From Promethearchaeota archaeon (lineage in GTDB: Archaea > Asgardarchaeota > Lokiarchaeia > Sigyniarchaeales > SOKP01): a stretch of 57,421 nucleotides of DNA. Every line of letters begins with the position of its first letter. Within the stretch, counting starts at the first letter, position 1. The notes beneath the pieces are model-generated. The model had not been told where the DNA came from. It ran no database searches and saw nothing but the letters and a program-made list of their open reading frames with translations. The translations under genes and the position numbers were made by a program. Where the stretch lies: assembly GCA_008080735.1 (NCBI GenBank), contig SHMW01000018.1:1-57421 (forward strand). The letters are read 5' to 3'. Below are positions 36,628-53,604 of this stretch, piece by piece.

Positions 36628-38043
36628 TTATCTCATATCGTCCATATCAACAACATTTTTCCCTAATCTGGACTTTTCAGCCGCAAAACCCATTAAATGA
36701 GATTCTAAGGACGCTCGGGCTGAAGTAAGTACTTCATTTTCGCCCTTATCACCAATTAATAAAGAATTCACAAACGACTCCATGAGACCTGCATCGCCAT
36801 CACTATGCGCCTCAAAAGTAATATCCGATTCCCAGAGTACCCTCTCATCGACATATCTATGATCATAATAAAGTAATTTCTCTCCTCCGTATGTAAAACG
36901 CCCTAAGAGGGATCCCTTTGAGCCAGATATTCTGATCCATCGTCCATCTAAATATGAATGACCATGCATGGTCATAGTCGCTGTAGTCCCATTTTCGAAC
37001 TGAATGGAGACAATTTGATGATCTGGAACATCATTATCGCATTTAAATACGCAACGTCCCCAAGGACCTTCTTGGAGTGCTTTCATCTTTCCTTCATAGG
37101 AAAGATCTTCAGTAATTACAGTAGCGGGCCAACGATTCCACTTTACCAATCCTCTCAACGGTTTAATGATATAGCTGAGAATTTTTGAAATTTTTCTATG
37201 GTTTATCAGAAGGTTCCCTATAACTCTTAACCAGCGCTTGTTAGATCTTTTAGTGACTCGAAGAATTGGCTCGCCCTTAATATATAAGCGTGGGGCATAC
37301 CATGGACAATCTTCAGCCACGGGACAGCCATCAGTACAACGGTCGGGAGCCCCCTCTGGTGTGTTTTTGGATTTATAAAAGGTCAATTCACCAAACGAAT
37401 GAATATACTTTGCTTTCGACTCAACCAACCAATATAGTAAATCCAGGTCGTGACAAGTTTTTGCTAATATCACTGGGCTTGAATCATCCGCTCTTCTCCA
37501 AGTGCCTCTCACATATCCATGGGGGAAATGCCAGTAGGCAACATTTTCAGAATGTTCGATATTTATAATTCTCCCTACTAATCCATCTTTTATAGCTTTT
37601 TTAATTTTTGAGAACATTGTAGTATATCGTGCAACATGACAAATCCTTAGTTGTTTATTTGCCTTCTCGGAAGCTTTTACTAGTTTTTTACACTCCTCTT
37701 CGGTTGTCGCCATCGGTTTTTCCAGTAATACATGGTACCCCAATTCAAGTGCTTTCAAAGCCGGTTCAGTATGCATTTTATCTTGGGTGCATATCAAACA
37801 AGCATCGGCAAGTTTTCCGATCTCAGGATTTAATAATGCTTCCCAATTTGAAAAGCAATAATTATTGGGGACATTCCATTCATTAGCAAAGCCAATCCTT
37901 CTTTCTTCAATAGGTTCGGCAACAGCAACAAAATTAATTTTATGTTTATTTTTAAGACCCCATTTTCCATAGGCATATCTTCCACGAGCTCCTGCACCAA
38001 TTAACACTGCTCTTATTTGAGATTTCTTTTTTTTCTCTTTCAT
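36628..38043 (-). CDS. Gfo/Idh/MocA family oxidoreductase
   Basis: IGAGARG, LLEKPMA, HGYVRG.W, AKTCHDLD; start moved to ATG 38043. Confidence 0.9.
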   Translation of the reverse strand: MKEKKKKSQIRAVLIGAGARGRYAYGKWGLKNKHKINFVAVAEPIEERRIGFANEWNVPNNYCFSNWEALLNPEIGKLADACLICTQDKMHTEPALKALELGYHVLLEKPMATTEEECKKLVKASEKANKQLRICHVARYTTMFSKIKKAIKDGLVGRIINIEHSENVAYWHFPHGYVRGTWRRADDSSPVILAKTCHDLDLLYWLVESKAKYIHSFGELTFYKSKNTPEGAPDRCTDGCPVAEDCPWYAPRLYIKGEPILRVTKRSNKRWLRVIGNLLINHRKISKILSYIIKPLRGLVKWNRWPATVITEDLSYEGKMKALQEGPWGRCVFKCDNDVPDHQIVSIQFENGTTATMTMHGHSYLDGRWIRISGSKGSLLGRFTYGGEKLLYYDHRYVDERVLWESDITFEAHSDGDAGLMESFVNSLLIGDKGENEVLTSARASLESHLMGFAAEKSRLGKNVVDMDDMR

Positions 38044-38057
38044 ATTAACAAACTTCC

Positions 38058-38912
38058 TTAAATTTGGTTTTTCGGAGTCTTTAATGTATCCCAATCGGTG
38101 GTGATAGTATAATCTGGATGTCCACGAATATGTGTTACGGGATAGTCATCCCCAGGATGTCCCAATAATGCAATTCGCAAGATAAGATTCGCCCAATCAT
38201 AAGAGGACCCATTTCTACAGTATAATCGAATTTTTTGCGCATTTAATACTTGTTTCATTCCTATAGTGTATGCTTCTTTGGGAAAATTTTCCAAATTACC
38301 TCCCACTTCAGCGCGTATAGCATTAATCGTTATAGTAAACTTATTCAACCTGACTTTTCTGGGACTTGAATTCTTTACACACTCTTGGGGTTCATTAAAT
38401 GCAACATGTCCATGAATTCCAATACCTCCATAGCATACATCAATCCCGCCGATTTCATTAATGACATCTTCCAAGTCGTTAATATTAGTCTCATCTGGAA
38501 AAAATACTTGTTCTTCTTTCAAATTTAAAAAATTCTCAAGTAAATCAAAAAATAGAGTTTTTGCCACTTTTTTAAAGCTTAGTGGATGAGAAATATCAAC
38601 TGCATTTCCATCTTCATCGCAATATTCATCCATAAAGAAGAACCAACAGTTCTCTAAGGATATATGTTCTTCATTCAATAATTCAGCTAAGATCGGATAT
38701 TGACCAGTTGGTCCTACTGGTAAAATAAAACGAGAGAGTTTATTATTGTTGTTATTCCTTTTTATCTCATCTCTAATATTTTCTGCAAACCTTAGATGCA
38801 ATACATCAAGGTCTTTACACACGATAATATTATCACCCGCGCGTTTTATTACTTCTTGGGGGGTTAATCGTGCGAGCTTCCTAACCTCTTGCCTTCTATC
38901 ATCCATTTTCAA
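38058..38912 (-). CDS. NagB-like sugar-phosphate deaminase/isomerase (PVGP type)
   Basis: FMDEY and GGIGIHGHVAFNEP catalytic motifs; phosphate loop reads ILPVGPT rather than LATGST. Confidence 0.85.
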   Translation of the reverse strand: MKMDDRRQEVRKLARLTPQEVIKRAGDNIIVCKDLDVLHLRFAENIRDEIKRNNNNNKLSRFILPVGPTGQYPILAELLNEEHISLENCWFFFMDEYCDEDGNAVDISHPLSFKKVAKTLFFDLLENFLNLKEEQVFFPDETNINDLEDVINEIGGIDVCYGGIGIHGHVAFNEPQECVKNSSPRKVRLNKFTITINAIRAEVGGNLENFPKEAYTIGMKQVLNAQKIRLYCRNGSSYDWANLILRIALLGHPGDDYPVTHIRGHPDYTITTDWDTLKTPKNQI

Positions 38913-39684
38913 TCATTCCTAATAAATTTAAAATATTATTTGCAAAATATAGCTTTTGTGTCGTTTTATCGATATTATATTGAATTAACCAATTTTTATC
39001 TTGGTTTAAATTGTCTGGAATCTTGGAATAATGCACATCTGTTCCAAAAACAAGCTTTTTAAAAGCACCCTCCCACCAAAGCCATTTTCTCAGCCCAATT
39101 CTATCAGCACGCACACGCCACCCATCGGGTTCCCCTGTGATATCAGAATATACATTTGGTCGCATTCGAATTAATTCGGCAGCTTCATTATTCCAATGTA
39201 CCCCAAGATGAGCAATAATAATATTCAATTTATTGAAATTATTCGCAATGGGTTCCAAACGCATAGGATGCATATCCCAAGATGAATAAGATATCTCTTT
39301 TGATGGATTTGGAATAGTAACTATTCCAGTATGAAATAATATTGGCATCTTTAGTTTTTCTGCCATTTCCCACAGAGGATAAAATGACTTGTGATTATAT
39401 GGTTTGGTGGGAATCGTCACTTTTAGCATTTTAAAACCATCATTATATGCTTCTTGAATCTCATCAATTCCAGACACTCCTGGTTGGATATAATATGAGC
39501 CAATTATCTTATCAGGATTCATTTTGAATGCTCTTTTTACATCTGAATTGTTTCTACAAAAGAATTTTTCACCCAATCCACTCAAACAACATTTTTCTAT
39601 TTCATTTATCTCCATAGTTTTTAACAGATTTTTAAGGTAATGTGGTTCATCCAAATAATGTGCATGAGCATCAATAATCAGCAT
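38899..39684 (-). CDS. Amidohydrolase_2 family metallohydrolase
   Basis: IIDAHAH, ILFHTG, IIAHLG, FGTD. Confidence 0.88.
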   Translation of the reverse strand: MLIIDAHAHYLDEPHYLKNLLKTMEINEIEKCCLSGLGEKFFCRNNSDVKRAFKMNPDKIIGSYYIQPGVSGIDEIQEAYNDGFKMLKVTIPTKPYNHKSFYPLWEMAEKLKMPILFHTGIVTIPNPSKEISYSSWDMHPMRLEPIANNFNKLNIIIAHLGVHWNNEAAELIRMRPNVYSDITGEPDGWRVRADRIGLRKWLWWEGAFKKLVFGTDVHYSKIPDNLNQDKNWLIQYNIDKTTQKLYFANNILNLLGMIENG

Positions 39685-39885
39685 TTAAACACCTTCCTCT
39701 AATTGCTACTAAGTTTAAATCAATTCTCACTAATAAAAAAAACCTATGGAAATTAAAATACTAATTGCTTTAACTTTCACATTGCTTACAATCACAAAAT
39801 CAAAAGGATCTTTAGAGAATGTGTATAAAATAATTAAAAAAGATTAGATATTTTATTGGTGTGGATTAGATTTTATATAATCATC

Positions 39886-41184
39886 TTAGTAATGCCCTTT
39901 CATTTCATGTCTCTCGTCTTCTATTTTCCCTTTCAGAAGCGGATCATTTGTACTAATCATCCAGTCGTTTAATTCCGTCCTTAATTCATATAAAATATCA
40001 CTATAATCTGCGTTTTCAATTAGATTATTCATCTCATTTGGATCATTCTTAAGGTCATATAATTCCTCCATAGCGCGTGGTTCTTGACTTCTTTCCTTCA
40101 TCACTTTACCCGAAGGATCCATCATAATATCTTTAGGTATTTGATAAAGAGAATCCAATTTTTTAAAATTCTTTATATATTTGAATTTATGTGTCCTTAC
40201 CCCTCTCATTGGGTCATAGATCTCATGATATGTTTTTTCCGCATATATTTTATTATGAATCTCTTCTTTCTCTCCTTTTAGAATAGGTATAAAGCTTTTT
40301 CCTTCAATTCTTTCTCCTATCTTGCCACCTACTAAATCTATAAGAGATGGTAATAAATCGATATTGCTTAACATACTTTTCACTACCTTTCCTCCGCTCA
40401 AGTATTCTGCGCCCGGATAGTGCATTAAAAGAATTGTTTTTAATCCAGGATCGTATAGCGTGCATTTAGCTCTTGGATAAGGGATACCGTGATCTGTGGT
40501 GTAAATGAATATAGTATTTTCTAATATACCAAGATCATCCAAATGGTCCCAAATTGTTCCAATTGTCTGATCTACAATCTCAACATTCCCGTAAAATCCC
40601 GCTAAATCTTCTCTAATCTCATCAATATCCGGTAAATAAGGCGGGACCTTCACTCTCGCTGGATCAACTGGTTCTGCCCACGCTTGATAAGGTCGGTGCA
40701 CCTCGATTGTCCCTATATTGACAAAAAATGGCTTCTCATCATCTTTATGCTCACTAAGAAATTTTAAATATTTTCTTTCCATCCGAGCTCGAGAGTATTT
40801 AAATTCTGGACCTCGTTTGCTAATAGTATCGTATCCTAAGGTATTCGCATCATGAACTTCATGCTGTAGTCCTAAAAGGTGTGTGGTATAACCATTTTCT
40901 TTTAAATACATTGGGAGTGTTTTATTATCTTCGGGCATGCTCCATCCAAGGTTTACAAGTCCCATTAAACCATTCTGATGAGGATATAAAGATGTTTTTA
41001 TTGAACTTCTACTGGGACTACATTGCGGAGCGGTACAAAAATAATTAGTAAATTGAACCCCCTCTTGAGCAATTTTGTCTATATTCGGAGTATTCAACGA
41101 ATTTGGTACTTCGGAATCATAACATCCAGCATACTGTCCTTGATCATGGGTAATAAATAAAACAATATTCGGTTTTTTATTCAT
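39886..41184 (-). CDS. Cys-type S1 sulfatase, sulfamidase (N-sulfoglucosamine sulfohydrolase)-like
   Basis: KPNIV, CSPSR formylglycine motif, VHRPY, PPYLPD, TDHGIPYPRAKCTLYDPG, ELYDL..DP.E..NL. Confidence 0.9.
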   Translation of the reverse strand: MNKKPNIVLFITHDQGQYAGCYDSEVPNSLNTPNIDKIAQEGVQFTNYFCTAPQCSPSRSSIKTSLYPHQNGLMGLVNLGWSMPEDNKTLPMYLKENGYTTHLLGLQHEVHDANTLGYDTISKRGPEFKYSRARMERKYLKFLSEHKDDEKPFFVNIGTIEVHRPYQAWAEPVDPARVKVPPYLPDIDEIREDLAGFYGNVEIVDQTIGTIWDHLDDLGILENTIFIYTTDHGIPYPRAKCTLYDPGLKTILLMHYPGAEYLSGGKVVKSMLSNIDLLPSLIDLVGGKIGERIEGKSFIPILKGEKEEIHNKIYAEKTYHEIYDPMRGVRTHKFKYIKNFKKLDSLYQIPKDIMMDPSGKVMKERSQEPRAMEELYDLKNDPNEMNNLIENADYSDILYELRTELNDWMISTNDPLLKGKIEDERHEMKGHY

Positions 41185-42086: not shown

Positions 42087-43457
42087 ATGACTACTAATAA
42101 AGTCTCTGAAACAAAAAGAAAACAATCTAGAATCTCGGAGCCTCCGTTAACAATAAAATCATTTTTAAAATATCTTGGACCTGCTTTTATCTTTACTGCA
42201 GCCCAAATTGGGGGTGGAGAATTTATTACTGTTCCGTTGCTTGGAGCATATTTCGGGATGAGTGGTTTATTTCTTGTGCCTATTATAGCATATATTAAGA
42301 TTTTTGGGCAATATTATTTAGTGCAGTATGGAGTAACACGTGGGAAAACATTTCTACAGACTAGTTGGGACCATAAATGGCTAAGATGGATGTTTTTTGC
42401 TCTAATGGGAGGATGTTTTCTTCATGCCATAATGATGGCGGGATTATTAGGAGAAACTTCAGGAACGTTTAATTTTGTTTTTCCAATTGATATCAAAATA
42501 TGGATAATTATCATCGCGATCGCTGGATTTATAATTGTTTCAACTAGAAGCTATAATTTGTTGGAAAAAACTTCCACTGTGTTATTATGGGTTTTTCTTT
42601 CATTGATTATCATCGTTGCCATATTGTTTTGGCCTACCATTGACCAATGGATAGTTGGGTTCACACCTACCTTTCCGGGAGCAAACCCAGGCTTGGAAAC
42701 CACTTCAGGTATACAGACTCTTGCCGTTTTATTTGTCGTGTTGGGAGCGGGATTTGGTCCAACCGTTTCCTATATTTTTTACGCAAAAGATAAAAATATG
42801 GGCATGTTTGAAGCATCTTCTAAAGGATTCGACATCAAACCAGAAGATCTAACTGAAGAAGAAATAAAGAGGCTTAAAGGATGGAAAAAGGTTGTACTAT
42901 ATCAAAACCTTGTTTCTGCGACTATTTTAAGCATATTTTCAATTCTAATCTGGACCGCGGCAGCTGGAACACTTTTTAAAGAAGGTATTAAACCCAGAGG
43001 AGATGATCTCGTCGCACAAATGATACTAATATTTACATCGACATACGGTGAATGGTCTGGCTATTTATTTATGATTTGTGGATCTCTTGCTCTATTTAGT
43101 TCTGTGATTGGTCCACTATATGGCTTCTCTCGATTATGGGAAGAAAGTTTTGAACGTCTAGGATTATATCGTAAATATAAAATTGATAAAAAGATTGTGT
43201 TTAGATTATGTTTAGTAATGTTTACACTATTTCCCCTTGTTCTCGCCTTAGTCTTCGATAATCCCATGCAACTATTTTCATTTTCAGGAATAGTGACGGG
43301 TCCGATTTTAGGCCTGGTCTATATAGTTCCAATAATCGTGCTTTACTATGAAATGAAAAAAACAGCGCCAGAATTAAAACCACGCCGATATTGGGCAATG
43401 GCACTTGCGATTCTCAGCGGTATACTCATGATAGTTTTAGCTTTGATGGGTTTTTAG
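42087..43457 (+). CDS. Nramp-like / APC-superfamily secondary transporter
   Basis: LGPAFIFTAAQIGGGEFI..P..GA.FG start and about 11 TM helices. Confidence 0.85.
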   Translation: MTTNKVSETKRKQSRISEPPLTIKSFLKYLGPAFIFTAAQIGGGEFITVPLLGAYFGMSGLFLVPIIAYIKIFGQYYLVQYGVTRGKTFLQTSWDHKWLRWMFFALMGGCFLHAIMMAGLLGETSGTFNFVFPIDIKIWIIIIAIAGFIIVSTRSYNLLEKTSTVLLWVFLSLIIIVAILFWPTIDQWIVGFTPTFPGANPGLETTSGIQTLAVLFVVLGAGFGPTVSYIFYAKDKNMGMFEASSKGFDIKPEDLTEEEIKRLKGWKKVVLYQNLVSATILSIFSILIWTAAAGTLFKEGIKPRGDDLVAQMILIFTSTYGEWSGYLFMICGSLALFSSVIGPLYGFSRLWEESFERLGLYRKYKIDKKIVFRLCLVMFTLFPLVLALVFDNPMQLFSFSGIVTGPILGLVYIVPIIVLYYEMKKTAPELKPRRYWAMALAILSGILMIVLALMGF

Positions 43458-49954: not shown

Positions 49955-50458
49955 GTGAAAGAGCTTATGAAGAAAAAAGTTTTAGTCTTTGAGCCTAAAA
50001 AATGTATTGGATGCCGATTATGTGAGGGTTACTGTGCAATGACTCATTATGGAGTTAATAACCCCTCAAAATCACGTATTCGTATTATAAGAAATCATAA
50101 AAAACAAATAGATATTGCGATCTATTGTCATCAATGTATTAACCCTCCTTGTGTGGAAGCATGCAAATTTAATGCTCTAAGTGTTGATTCTGAAACTGGA
50201 GCGATTTCCGTTGAAGAGGAGAATTGCACAGCTTGCAGAATGTGTGTTGAAAAATGTCCTTATGCGGTACCATCTATTCATCCAGATAACAATATTATAA
50301 TGATCTGTGATTTATGTGGAGGAGAACCTAAATGCGTAGAGATATGTCCAGAAAACGCAATTCAATACCTTGAGATTCATAAAGCCGACAATATATACAA
50401 GTCAATATATACTAAACAAGCAGCAGAAAATTTAACTTATAGGGAGGAGGGAAAATGA
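49955..50458 (+). CDS. 4x[4Fe-4S] electron-transfer subunit (AOR-associated)
   Basis: CIGCRLCEGYC, CHQC..PPCVEAC, CTACRMCVEKCP, CDLCGGEPKCVEICP. Confidence 0.92.
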   Translation: MKELMKKKVLVFEPKKCIGCRLCEGYCAMTHYGVNNPSKSRIRIIRNHKKQIDIAIYCHQCINPPCVEACKFNALSVDSETGAISVEEENCTACRMCVEKCPYAVPSIHPDNNIIMICDLCGGEPKCVEICPENAIQYLEIHKADNIYKSIYTKQAAENLTYREEGK

Positions 50459-52281
50459 AAAAATCTTTTGGAATGATGGGTAAATTATTAAGGGTTAATC
50501 TCACAACAGAAAAGATTTCAACTGAATCTATAAGCTTCAAATTATGGGAAGCCTTTTTGGGTGGCCGAGGACTTGGAGCCTACTATTTAATGAAAGAGGT
50601 TCCTCCAGATACAGACCCACTAAGTCCAGATAATAAACTTATTTTCATGAATGGACCATTAGCGGGTACGATAATTCCTGGAAATAATAAAATATGTGTT
50701 ACTTTTAAATCATATCTCACAGAAAGTTATTCCTATTCATTATGTGGAGGCTTTTGGGGTCCAGAATTAAAATATGCTGGCTATGATGGTCTTATAATGG
50801 AAGGGAAGGCATCAAAACCAGTGTATCTTTGGATTGATGATGAAAATATTGAAATCAAGGTTGCAGATCATATTTGGGGAGAGATGATCTCTGAAAGTGA
50901 GGAACAAATTCGTAGAGAACTTGGAGGCGATGAAACAATTCAAATTGCAGTTATAGGTCCCGCAGGAGAGAAAAAGGTGGCTTATGCATGTATCACTGCT
51001 GGTCAATATAGGGAATTTGGGAGAGGAGGTTCTGGTGCAATAATGGGATCAAAGAATTTGAAAGGAATCGCACTGCGAGGGTCTCATGATGTTATCGTTG
51101 GCAAACCAGATGAATTAATCCCCTTATCTAAAAGATTAATTCAAAATCTACAAAAATCATCTGGAGGTCAGATTCGAAGGAAATATGGCACGATGGAATT
51201 GGTTGAAAGAATAAATGATGCGGGCTTTTGGGTAACTCGGAATTTTTCAGGAGGATATTTTGAAGAGGGTTATAAACTGGAAGGAGAACAAATGCGCCAA
51301 GAGATTGTGAGTGGCGATAGTTCCTGTTTTGGTTGTCCTATAGGGTGTGGCAAATGGACCTATGTTCAAACTAAGGATGGAGAGATCTTACAAATGGAGG
51401 GTCCTGAGTTTGAGAGTGTTGGAATGTTAGGGTCAAACTGTGGTATTAGCGATTGGAAAACCATAATGGCTGCCACTAAAATCTGTGATACTTATGGGTT
51501 TGATACTATTAATGGTGGTGGAATTATAGGGATGCTTATGGAAGCCTATGAATCAGGTGCCTTGGACAAAGAGAATATCGATGGAATTGACTTGACTTTT
51601 GGGAATGGGGATGCCCTCTTGAAAATGTTGAAGAAAATAGGAAAAAGAGAAGGTATCGGGGATATTCTCGCAAAAGGTATAGAACGTGCCGGAAGGGAAT
51701 TAGGCATATTAGAATTTGCGGTTCATTCAAAAGGACAAACTTTCCCTGTATACGATCCTCGTGGCGCAAAGGCGATGGCATTGACATATTCCACCAGCCC
51801 AAAAGGAGCGCATCATATGTTCGCGACTACTTTCGGAGCTGAGTTAACAATGGGCAATAGGTTCGAAGAGGAAGGAAAAGCGAGTTTAGAAAGAACTCAT
51901 CAATTCAGTATGGCAATTGTAGACTCTATTGCTCTATGCTCGACAATGCGAGCGGGAATAACGTTGAATGATCAAGCGGAAGCATATTCGGTTGTCACAG
52001 GAATGCAAATGGATATAGATAAATTAAATGAAGCCGCGGAGCGTATTATTAACCTTGAAAGAATGTATAATGTTCTTATCGGTTATAATCGTGAGAATGA
52101 TACTTTACCGAGTAAATTTCTAAATGTAGCTATGCCGAAAGGTGAAAGCAAAGGTCAAACTGTAAATCTTAGTTTAATGTTGGATGAATATTATGACGTT
52201 ATGGGTTGGACAATTGATGGAATTCCAACTAAAGAGAAGCTACATCAATTAGAACTAAATCGTTTTATTGATGGAATCTAA
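50455..52281 (+). CDS. aor: Tungsten-dependent aldehyde:ferredoxin oxidoreductase family protein
   Basis: LGGRGLG, GPELKYAGYD, GRGG.GAIMGSKNLK, CFGCPIGC, GPEFE, D.YG.DTI, YDPRG. Confidence 0.92.
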   Translation: MKKSFGMMGKLLRVNLTTEKISTESISFKLWEAFLGGRGLGAYYLMKEVPPDTDPLSPDNKLIFMNGPLAGTIIPGNNKICVTFKSYLTESYSYSLCGGFWGPELKYAGYDGLIMEGKASKPVYLWIDDENIEIKVADHIWGEMISESEEQIRRELGGDETIQIAVIGPAGEKKVAYACITAGQYREFGRGGSGAIMGSKNLKGIALRGSHDVIVGKPDELIPLSKRLIQNLQKSSGGQIRRKYGTMELVERINDAGFWVTRNFSGGYFEEGYKLEGEQMRQEIVSGDSSCFGCPIGCGKWTYVQTKDGEILQMEGPEFESVGMLGSNCGISDWKTIMAATKICDTYGFDTINGGGIIGMLMEAYESGALDKENIDGIDLTFGNGDALLKMLKKIGKREGIGDILAKGIERAGRELGILEFAVHSKGQTFPVYDPRGAKAMALTYSTSPKGAHHMFATTFGAELTMGNRFEEEGKASLERTHQFSMAIVDSIALCSTMRAGITLNDQAEAYSVVTGMQMDIDKLNEAAERIINLERMYNVLIGYNRENDTLPSKFLNVAMPKGESKGQTVNLSLMLDEYYDVMGWTIDGIPTKEKLHQLELNRFIDGI

Positions 52282-52347: not shown

Positions 52348-53604
52348 ATGCGAGCTCAAAAATTTCCGAAGATGCGGTTTGTCACTCAAGCTATCAGATT
52401 TCCTGAAGTGGAGAATCTTGAATCTTTGATCACTAACAAGCTTAAGGACTTTGGATTAAATAAGAGGGTTTCTAATGGTGAAAGGATCGCATTAACTGCT
52501 AGTTCACGGGGAATAAAATCCCAAGCGCTTATTCTTCGACTTCTAGTAGATTATCTAAAGACCTTAGGCACTAAACCATATATAATTCCCGCGATGGGGA
52601 GCCACGGAGGCGCAACTGCTAAGGGACAAATGGAAATCTTAAAAGAATATGGAATAACTACTCAGTCCATGGGTTGTCCAATTAGAGCTACTATGGAAGT
52701 GGTTAAACTTGGAGTCACTGAATTTGGAACCCCTTTAGTTGTTAATAAACATGTATTAGATGCAGATAAAATTTTTATAATCAACAAAATCAATACTCAT
52801 TCCAAATTCGTGGGGCCGGTAGAGAGTGGTCTTAGTAAAATGTGCTTAATTGGCCTCGGAAGCCATCAAGGAGCTAAACTTTATCATCGACTCATTGAAA
52901 AATATTCTTGGACGACTGTTATCCAATCTCTAAGTAACTTAATCATAGAGAAATTACCTATTATGGCAGGTTTAGCAATAATTCAGAATGCTTATAATAA
53001 AGTTTCTGAGATTCATTTTTTAAAACCAGAAGAATTTGTTGAGAAAGAACCAGAATTACTAGAGAGATGTAAAGAAATCAAGCCTAAAATTCCTTTTAAT
53101 GAATTGGACCTCCTCATTATTGATGAGATGGGCAAAAATATCTTCGGTACGGGTATGGATACCCAAATCACAGGTAAGAAACGCAACTCTGAGATGAATG
53201 TTCAATGGGTATTTGTCAGAGATCTCACGGAAGAAACTCATGGAAATGCTCAAGGTATAGGTCTTGCGGATTTTACTACCAAACGTTTAGTAGATAAAAT
53301 AGATTTCTCACAGACCTATGAGAATGCTTTGACAGCTTATCGTACAGATTCTCCAAAAATTCCCATTTTCCTTCCCACTGACAAGGATATATTGAATAAA
53401 ATATTCGATGTATCGGGCATAAAAAACCCTTCGGAATTTCGAATAGTTTGGATTAAAAATACCTTAGAACTCGGAAAGATGTTAGTTTCTGAAGCTTTTT
53501 TTGATGAAATAGAAAGTAAAATTAATCTTAATTCTGTTGAGGGTGTAGAAGATATACAATTTGACAAGCAAGGTTATCTAACTAACTCTAAAAAATATTG
53601 GTAA
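52348..53604 (+). CDS. Lactate-racemase-N (DUF2088/DUF362)-like protein
   Basis: SRGI, IPAMGSHGGATA.GQ, ESGL.KM..IGLG...GA, GKNI.GTGMD, HGNA.GIGLAD. Confidence 0.8.
   Translation: MRAQKFPKMRFVTQAIRFPEVENLESLITNKLKDFGLNKRVSNGERIALTASSRGIKSQALILRLLVDYLKTLGTKPYIIPAMGSHGGATAKGQMEILKEYGITTQSMGCPIRATMEVVKLGVTEFGTPLVVNKHVLDADKIFIINKINTHSKFVGPVESGLSKMCLIGLGSHQGAKLYHRLIEKYSWTTVIQSLSNLIIEKLPIMAGLAIIQNAYNKVSEIHFLKPEEFVEKEPELLERCKEIKPKIPFNELDLLIIDEMGKNIFGTGMDTQITGKKRNSEMNVQWVFVRDLTEETHGNAQGIGLADFTTKRLVDKIDFSQTYENALTAYRTDSPKIPIFLPTDKDILNKIFDVSGIKNPSEFRIVWIKNTLELGKMLVSEAFFDEIESKINLNSVEGVEDIQFDKQGYLTNSKKYW

Follow-up and report, generated by a model that had tools for sequence, protein, structure and literature searches.

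A hydrolase/NagB-like gene pair beside sulfo-TAL genes in a Promethearchaeota archaeon, a possible entry branch into sulfoglycolysis

The operon and its sulfo-TAL surroundings

The stretch analysed here, hereafter the window, comprises positions 1 to 57,421 of contig SHMW01000018.1 (33% GC) from a Promethearchaeota archaeon, a Loki-type member of the Asgard archaea. It carries an operon in which the gene for a metal-dependent hydrolase of the Amidohydro_2 family is translationally coupled to a gene for a protein related to the glucosamine-6-phosphate deaminase NagB, and this hydrolase/NagB-like pair is the subject of the present analysis. A sequence-only reading of the window had described a run of sulfatase, amidohydrolase, NagB-like, Gfo/Idh/MocA oxidoreductase and GH31 genes. 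All five genes were found on the minus strand in that order, divergent from a gene for a sulfofructose transaldolase (SF-TAL)-type enzyme. The overlaps between genes described by the same reading are real, but their extent hinges on the choice of start codon (TTG or ATG). The 37-nt overlap of the Gfo and NagB-like genes depends on a TTG start, and the ATG start found in the 282-aa database homologues leaves an 8-nt overlap between the NagB-like gene and the stop of the amidohydrolase gene. The genes of the operon and the sulfoglycolytic genes around it are as follows.

39886 to 41184, minus strand: Cys-type sulfatase, S1_8-like (sulfamidase family), first gene of the operon; PF00884 and SGSH_C (PF16347); 432 aa
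38899 to 39684, minus strand: Amidohydro_2 metal-dependent hydrolase, proposed N-deacylase; PF04909, E 6e-15; 261 aa
38058 to 38912, minus strand: NagB-like deaminase/isomerase without the canonical phosphate loop; TIGR00502, 79 bits; 284 aa, the likely true start being the ATG at 38906
36628 to 38094, minus strand: long Gfo/Idh/MocA NAD(P) oxidoreductase; PF01408, PF22725 and PF02894; 488 aa
34556 to 36538, minus strand: YihQ-clade GH31 glycosidase; PRK10426/YihQ model, 829 bits against a cut-off of 553; 660 aa
41367 to 42035, plus strand: SF-TAL-type enzyme, divergent from the operon; 296 bits against BmSF-TAL 8bc3; 222 aa
55857 to 57182, plus strand: SftI-like sugar isomerase; NF048012 (sulfoquinovose isomerase), 229 bits, below the cut-off of 700

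The transaldolase is about 63% identical, as counted from the alignment, to the SF transaldolase of Bacillus megaterium (8bc3), keeps the Trp-containing FxGW motif and was assigned as an orthologue of that enzyme. The GH31 protein aligned with Escherichia coli YihQ (5aed) over almost its full length (656 bits). The SftI-like gene lies 14 kb beyond the transaldolase. Related loci (L-numbers) were drawn from genomes and metagenomes, and their neighbours were surveyed with hidden Markov models built from neighbour clusters and run on 93 sequences (92 loci and the window). SftI homologues adjoin the GH31 gene in L002, L005, L010 and L012, and a YihU-like beta-hydroxyacid dehydrogenase adjoins SF-TAL in L002 and L004. 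An apparently complete core of GH31, SftI-like isomerase, YihU-like dehydrogenase, SF-TAL and major facilitator superfamily (MFS) transporter was seen in the Asgard loci L002 (3681-8512), L004, L012, L023 and L057.

No sugar kinase was found among the 36 open reading frames (ORFs) scanned between 19 and 57 kb of the window (1-19 kb was not covered), and none was present in any NagB-like gene cluster examined, in agreement with the sequence-only reading of a cluster lacking such a kinase. Judged from their sequences, the surrounding genes appear to match the sulfoglycolytic transaldolase pathway (sulfo-TAL, or sulfo-SFT) of B. megaterium/aryabhattai and gut Firmicutes, which comprises SftG/SqvC, SftI/SqvD, SftT/SqvA and a sulfolactaldehyde (SLA) reductase/dehydrogenase (PMC7491151, PMC12890257). 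The window shares with that pathway a YihQ-clade GH31, a candidate SftI-like isomerase, the closely related SF-TAL and a kinase-free layout, and its relatives carry the YihU-like reductase and the MFS transporter. DUF4867 and TauE, also sulfo-TAL genes, were not recognised among the window ORFs scanned, and no SLA reductase/dehydrogenase was recognised in the window, where an aldehyde:ferredoxin oxidoreductase (AOR) at 50455-52281 is a candidate. The Asgard set further differs in the residues described below and in the extra pair, a putative deacylase and the NagB-like protein, which may represent a new entry branch. Text searches of PMC7491151 and PMC12890257 returned no mention of such a pair.

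Residue changes set the Asgard enzymes apart from solved bacterial counterparts. The window transaldolase reads NPKH/GWQE where BmSF-TAL reads NPRH/GWKE, and all 12 Asgard-type low-GC transaldolases (the window and 11 related loci) carry NPKH...FIGWQE as against NPRH...FVGWKE in the B. megaterium enzyme; the transaldolase of the bacterial locus L059 retains NPRH/GWRE. In the GH31 proteins, Arg301 is replaced by Gln (GKQLFW) in each of the five Asgard YihQ-clade copies (window, L002, L005, L010 and L012), and Tyr508 is replaced by Phe in the window copy alone. Trp304 and the catalytic Asp405 and Asp472 are kept. The Arg301/Trp304/Tyr508 sulfonate triad of sulfoquinovosidase is thus incomplete in the window GH31.

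The NagB-like protein and its exchangeable hydrolases

The NagB-like protein was aligned to E. coli NagB by HMMER, MAFFT and hhalign, and E. coli residue numbering is used throughout. It is the sole NagB-family gene product of the genome. With TIGR00502, the nagB equivalog model, it scored 79.2 bits against a cut-off of 236.9 and so fell below the family threshold, and searches with PF01182 and the rest of Pfam gave no match at E <= 0.001. The three aligners agreed that the equivalents of Asp72, His143 and Glu148 are kept. The motifs that contain them, MDEY and GIHGHVAFNEP, are invariant in 11 aligned homologues and present in about 90 loci; the Asp141 equivalent is His. Where NagB reads LPTGGTP the NagB-like protein reads ILPVGPTGQY, and all three alignments placed LPVG--P at the Thr41-Gly-Gly-Thr44 loop, which is two residues shorter, with Val in place of Thr41 and with Thr44 absent. 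Retained catalytic motifs together with an altered phosphate loop had been noticed in the sequence-only reading, and that description held. Most of the approximately 90 homologues, whose loci span 29-70% GC, have K or R at the Lys208 position. The Arg172 position is Ala in the alignment, and an Arg one residue earlier, inside a two-residue insertion, is conserved in most homologues. We read this sequence pattern as NagB chemistry retained with the phosphate-specific loop gone. An anion is probably still bound, since the Lys208 equivalent and the Arg beside the Arg172 position are both conserved.

The motifs are near-constant across the approximately 90 homologues, over the same range of GC content, which indicates that the NagB-like proteins form one orthologous group in Asgard archaea and several bacterial phyla. 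Bacterial loci with the gene were found in Chloroflexota and Sumerlaeota, and the phyla with most look-alike clusters in the Atlas were Lentisphaerota, Armatimonadota, Chloroflexota, Actinomycetota and Bacillota. In L009 (944-1795), L054 and L067 the cluster with the main type also contains a second NagB-like paralogue, more distantly related (PVGPLD..., G.G.[TN]GH.AFN[DE]P).

The Amidohydro_2 protein encoded beside it has a metal-ligand set (HxH, the His of LFHTG, the His of AHLG and the Asp of GTDV) that is conserved in 11 homologues. It gave no NCBIfam match and did not belong to PF01979 or TIGR00221, the NagA type. Its nearest solved relatives in sequence and profile searches of the Protein Data Bank (PDB) were LigI-like lactonases, decarboxylases, hydratases and BB4693. 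An AlphaFold2 (AF2) model (pLDDT 84.5) matched only generic Amidohydro_2 folds when compared by Foldseek. A hydrolase gene lies no more than 500 bp from 65 of the 77 informative NagB-like genes, and these hydrolases belong to families unrelated to each other, distributed as follows.

Amidohydro_2: 53 loci
PIG-L (PF02585, closest to the N-acetylglucosamine (GlcNAc)-malate deacetylase BshB1): 5 loci
DUF2334: 5 loci
Amidohydro_1 (NagA family): 2 loci
No adjacent hydrolase: 12 loci

PIG-L and Amidohydro_1, the family of NagA, include N-deacetylases of 2-amino sugars. Because unrelated hydrolases, at least two of them from sugar N-deacetylase families, replace one another at this position, an amide on C2 would be removed before the NagB-like step. 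This replacement is the strongest argument for such a step, and, as a comparison of gene neighbourhoods, it points to it. The sequence-only reading had proposed N-deacylation followed by deamination; the exchange of the hydrolase for PIG-L, DUF2334 or Amidohydro_1 in other lineages lends independent support to that order, on a substrate that may carry an amine. Regulators of the ROK/MarR families, NagC type, lie upstream of the hydrolase/NagB-like pair in four loci.

The arrangement recalls two known systems. As in NagA/NagB (EC 3.5.1.25 / 3.5.99.6), a hydrolase of the amidohydrolase superfamily precedes a NagB-fold enzyme with the Asp/His/Glu set, and the product would be a fructose substituted at C6 that feeds a route resembling glycolysis. 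Unlike in NagA/NagB, the hydrolase is an Amidohydro_2 protein and not a NagA orthologue (PIG-L, DUF2334 or Amidohydro_1 serving elsewhere), the TGGT loop is missing, no kinase or phosphotransferase system (PTS) accompanies the pair, and the pair lies in sulfosugar clusters; neither protein belongs to the corresponding NagA or NagB family by its model. The Bacteroidota NagB-PIG-L fusions (NF002557, 'glucosamine-6-phosphate deaminase-like protein') likewise combine these two functions, with a NagB fold and a PIG-L N-deacetylase in one protein. They have a recognisable PF01182 domain, whereas the window has separate genes and a NagB part of a distinct subfamily.

Co-occurrence, related loci and lineage-specific neighbours

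Co-occurrence of the NagB-like gene with SqvA-like transaldolases, a test named beforehand by the sequence-only reading, was assessed in 301 Asgard genomes, with a transaldolase of at least 65% identity counted as SF-TAL-type. The NagB-like gene was present in 11 genomes and the SF-TAL-type gene in 17, and 10 genomes had both, so that 10 of the 11 genomes with the NagB-like gene were positive as compared with 17 of 301 overall. Fisher tests gave p = 1e-13 at the level of the phylum and p = 1e-7 within the family, both overstated by the relatedness of the genomes. In seven of the ten double-positive genomes the two genes lie on the same contig no more than 10 kb apart. The result expected by the sequence-only reading was therefore obtained within the Asgard archaea.

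Gene order in the related loci places the pair with sulfoglycolytic genes. The amidohydrolase/NagB-like pair is repeatedly divergent from, or adjoins, a set of GH31, SftI, SF-TAL and an MFS transporter, in some cases with the YihU-like reductase before SF-TAL. In the bacterial locus L059 (43% GC) the NagB-like gene is accompanied by DUF2334, an aldehyde dehydrogenase and an NPRH-type SF-TAL, and in L008 (Chloroflexota) by DUF2334, an aldehyde dehydrogenase and an SftI-like gene. In L061 an ATP-binding cassette (ABC) importer, an aldose epimerase, a transaldolase (TAL), the NagB-like gene, a YihU-like reductase and an EamA exporter are found together; L067 also has the aldose epimerase. In L049, L054, L069 and L070 the NagB-like gene has an RpiB-like isomerase and a split transketolase (TK) beside it, the latter matching the solved split-chain enzyme with 238 bits. 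These four loci resemble the sulfo-TK pathway (split transketolase SqwGH, and SqwI; PMC12890257), from which they differ in that the NagB-like gene, alone or together with Amidohydro_2, takes the place expected for SqvD; the TK layout does not occur in the window itself. The split TK N and C subunits, the RpiB-like gene and the NagB-like gene stand in one row, without SqvD, in L049 (3-3086), L069, L070 and L054. In L094 (16572-20381) and L075 (4941-7774) the neighbours include a ComA-type (2R)-phospho-3-sulfolactate synthase (296 bits) and a membrane protein of the YeiH/PF03601 family of exporters, and these loci may desulfonate sulfolactate by ComA acting in reverse.

Other arrangements were observed in the related loci in their own right. 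In six Asgard loci, L005 (5252-7120), L018, L019, L023, L024 and L057, the gene between SftI and SF-TAL encodes a 620-aa protein that joins an amino-acid dehydrogenase of the Glu/Leu/Phe/Val type to a CBS pair. In L023 (6035-7087), L012 and L024 a sulfite-oxidase-type molybdopterin oxidoreductase fused to a DUF4079/cytochrome b561-like membrane domain adjoins SF-TAL, which hints at sulfite handling. A metallo-beta-lactamase and a protein of the OMP-decarboxylase/HUMPS family flank the MFS gene in L002 (13508-16564), L004, L026 and L030, an arrangement that recalls UlaG/UlaD.

The sulfatase that opens the operon has a CSPSR motif and no signal peptide. Its best solved matches were 9bb9 (S1_8A), 4mhx (human SGSH) and 9bbd (S1_8B), and it is S1_8-like. 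It resembles human SGSH and the bacterial S1_8 sulfatases in these matches, in the CxPxR motif and in the SGSH_C domain; unlike them, it lacks a signal peptide and is for this reason predicted to be cytoplasmic. Genes for 15 PF00884 sulfatases and a single anaerobic sulfatase-maturating enzyme (anSME, 406 bits) were found in the genome, which suggests that this Asgard archaeon uses sulfated glycans broadly, and the anSME could mature the window sulfatase. A sulfatase is present in seven of 47 long loci, and the operon-first position was seen only in the window and its close relatives L011 and L015. These two relatives also carry genes that the window does not have: a sulfotransferase (PF13469) between SF-TAL and the sulfatase (L011:5313-6140, and L015), and, separating the sulfatase from the amidohydrolase, a LuxE-like acyl-protein synthetase.

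The long Gfo oxidoreductase has only distant solved relatives (WlbA-type, YjhC, DgpA and SqgA 8qc2). A long Gfo gene follows the NagB-like gene in L001, L003, L011, L015, L016, L027 and L042, all from one Asgard subgroup, and in bacterial loci a shorter Gfo gene stands in that position, often with a xylose-isomerase-type TIM barrel. The sulfatase and the long Gfo are lineage-specific additions. An oxidative branch resembling the sulfo-Entner-Doudoroff (sulfo-ED) pathway, in which Gfo would serve as dehydrogenase, Amidohydro_2 as lactonase and an MR/MLE protein as dehydratase, was considered and set aside, as the hydrolase is exchanged for PIG-L, DUF2334 or Amidohydro_1; the absence of Gfo from most Asgard loci that keep the pair lowered its standing further.

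Further neighbours in the window are listed below.

42087 to 43457, plus strand: Nramp-family membrane transporter, downstream of the transaldolase; NF037982, 118 bits
32049 to 34535, plus strand: GH2 glycosidase of beta-mannosidase/exo-glucosaminidase architecture; PF22666, PF00703 and PF17753; also in L001, L002, L011 and L012
26669 to 29411, no single strand assigned: trio of a GNAT protein, a 334-aa protein of no known family and an MR/MLE acid-sugar dehydratase; conserved in L002, L004, L011 and L012
50455 to 54631, plus strand: AOR, LarA-like nickel-pincer isomerase and AEC transporter

A possible role for the last three genes would be the handling and export of sulfolactaldehyde. Bacterial loci repeatedly have LarA-like and AOR genes next to the NagB-like gene. 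The LarA-like isomerase (52348-53604 in the window, NPN isomerase group 22) was also observed in L061, L075, L079, L086 and L094.

A proposed amino-sulfosugar branch and its alternatives

We tentatively favour, at somewhat less than an even chance, the reading that the amidohydrolase and the NagB-like enzyme form a kinase-free analogue of NagA/NagB that would convert an N-acyl 2-amino-6-sulfo sugar to sulfofructose. The hydrolase would strip the N-acyl group from a 2-acylamino-2-deoxy hexose that bears an anion other than phosphate at C6. This anion is most likely a sulfonate, in which case the sugar would be the amino counterpart of sulfoquinovose; a 6-O-sulfate is less likely. Ring opening, isomerisation and hydrolysis of the imine by the NagB-like enzyme would follow, with ammonia and 6-deoxy-6-sulfofructose (or the sulfate-ester analogue) as products. 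The SF-type transaldolase would cleave this product and transfer C1-C3 to glyceraldehyde-3-phosphate. The pair would in this way provide a second entry to the sulfoglycolytic core that GH31 and SftI serve for sulfoquinovosides. In the lineage of the window, the operon would have gained the S1_8-type cytoplasmic sulfatase, possibly for N-desulfation, and the long Gfo; N-desulfation as an alternative to N-deacetylation would be an attractive fit, offered as pure speculation. What the sequences themselves show is the order of the genes, their motifs, the co-occurrence and the families of the neighbours; the substrate, the direction of the reactions and the roles of the sulfatase and of Gfo are what we infer here.

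Sulfofructose is the metabolite common to the TAL and TK routes, and since both kinds of cluster carry the NagB-like gene, the simplest reading is that its enzyme makes sulfofructose. The lack of a kinase in the clusters and of a canonical NagB in the genome was also counted in favour of the proposal. Several observations weigh against it. A literature search of roughly 8.4 million papers for sulfoquinovosamine, its N-acetyl variants and synonyms gave no mention, so the substrate is hypothetical; matches to 'dideoxy-6-sulfo' occurred only in papers on sulfoquinovose catabolism, where they were assumed to denote the sulfo-ED intermediate 2-keto-3,6-dideoxy-6-sulfogluconate (KDSG). The sequence-only reading had named sulfoquinovosamine as a component of some haloarchaeal S-layer glycans, a claim for which the search likewise returned nothing and which concerns a group other than that of this low-GC Asgard contig. 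Amidohydro_2 is not known to include an N-deacetylase, and the nearest solved relatives of this commonest partner are lactonases, decarboxylases and hydratases. The partner transaldolases of several bacterial loci are of the classical type (NPT[HK], FVGRLD) and not of the SF-TAL type. Eight of 28 TAL/TK loci have the NagB-like gene with neither a hydrolase nor SftI in the sequence examined, and in L061 the NagB-like gene fills the isomerase slot of what looks like a full sulfo-TAL set. Finally, a cationic residue has been lost from both the Asgard GH31 (Arg301 to Gln) and the Asgard transaldolase (GWKE to GWQE), and for this reason the C6 group served in Asgard archaea may differ from a plain sulfonate.

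Some of these observations fit better with a role of the NagB-like protein as an aldose-ketose isomerase or ring-opening enzyme for a sulfosugar without an amine (sulfoquinovose, or an epimer such as sulfofucose or sulforhamnose). In that role it would supply the TAL or TK with its ketose in place of the unrelated SftI/YihS, and the hydrolase would do something else, for example O-deacylation or lactone hydrolysis. We consider this the most serious alternative, if rather unlikely, and note that aldose-ketose isomerisation is contained in the established chemistry of NagB. SftI is missing from the sequence examined in 20 of the 28 TAL/TK loci with a NagB-like gene, among them the eight that also lack a hydrolase. 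L061 has the full sulfo-TAL layout with the NagB-like gene at the isomerase place, and L049 has the split TK, RpiB-like and NagB-like genes in one row. A plain isomerase, however, would not account for the hydrolase adjacent to 65 of the 77 NagB-like genes, PIG-L and Amidohydro_1 included, whose characterised sugar-active members cleave the N-acetyl group of 2-amino sugars. It would also be a redundant second isomerase in the window and in seven other low-GC (Asgard-type) loci where SftI coexists, and it would not need the full NagB Asp/His/Glu set.

A quite improbable alternative is that the pair degrades a sulfur-free amino sugar, such as GlcNAc or glucosamine (GlcN), the 6-deoxy sugar N-acetylquinovosamine (QuiNAc) or an amino-uronic acid, drawn from the same glycoconjugates, the link to SF-TAL reflecting a common source glycan. 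The PIG-L proteins, the ROK regulators and the GH2 of beta-mannosidase/glucosaminidase type are typical of GlcNAc/chitobiose systems, and the MR/MLE dehydratase, KduI/IolB and LarA-like neighbours fit uronate-type chemistry. Archaeal N-glycans with sulfoquinovose also carry GlcNAc (PMC11284389), and the classical transaldolases of several bacterial loci keep the phosphate-binding Arg. The basic residues at or beside two of the NagB phosphate-contact positions favour an anionic substrate, to which neutral sugars are a poor fit, and 10 of the 11 Asgard genomes with the NagB-like gene have SF-TAL. In many loci a TAL or TK gene directly adjoins the NagB-like gene, which indicates that these enzymes use the product of the NagB-like protein, and the ComA-type and YeiH genes of L075 and L094 point to sulfonate chemistry. 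An ordinary glucosamine-6-phosphate deaminase with a divergent loop and a kinase encoded elsewhere is very improbable: it would suit the sole NagB-family gene of the genome, the NagA-like gene on contig 34 (which stands alone amid unrelated genes) and the database labels of the homologues (glucosamine-6-phosphate deaminase or 6-phosphogluconolactonase), but the score of 79 bits against an equivalog cut-off of 237, a loop two residues shorter with both Thr gone and His for Asp141, the lack of a kinase in the clusters examined and the steady placement with sulfoglycolysis genes all stand against it.

If the amino-sulfosugar reading is extended to its natural source, an N-acyl 2-amino analogue of sulfoquinovose, for example N-acetylsulfoquinovosamine (C8H15NO8S, [M-H]- near m/z 284.04), would occur in sediments and microbial glycans and be funnelled into sulfoglycolysis by a widespread, so far unrecognised deacylase/deaminase module of Asgard archaea and several bacterial phyla. 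We regard this extension as doubtful, and if it were true it would imply a new class of metabolites and, for the NagB family, a first enzyme with specificity for a sulfonated substrate.

Sulfoquinovose turnover makes a major contribution to the sulfur cycle. The pathways characterised so far are all from bacteria, and a 2026 review states that archaea have yet to yield one (PMC12890257). The loci described here document what appears to be a complete set of sulfoglycolytic genes in archaea. At the entrance of the clusters, of sulfo-TAL type as well as sulfo-TK-like, stands a conserved and uncharacterised two-enzyme module shared by Asgard archaea and several bacterial phyla. If the pair acts on an amino sulfosugar, it predicts an unreported metabolite and a new specificity in the NagB family; if the NagB-like protein is merely an isomerase, it would constitute a third, unrelated family of sulfoquinovose isomerase.

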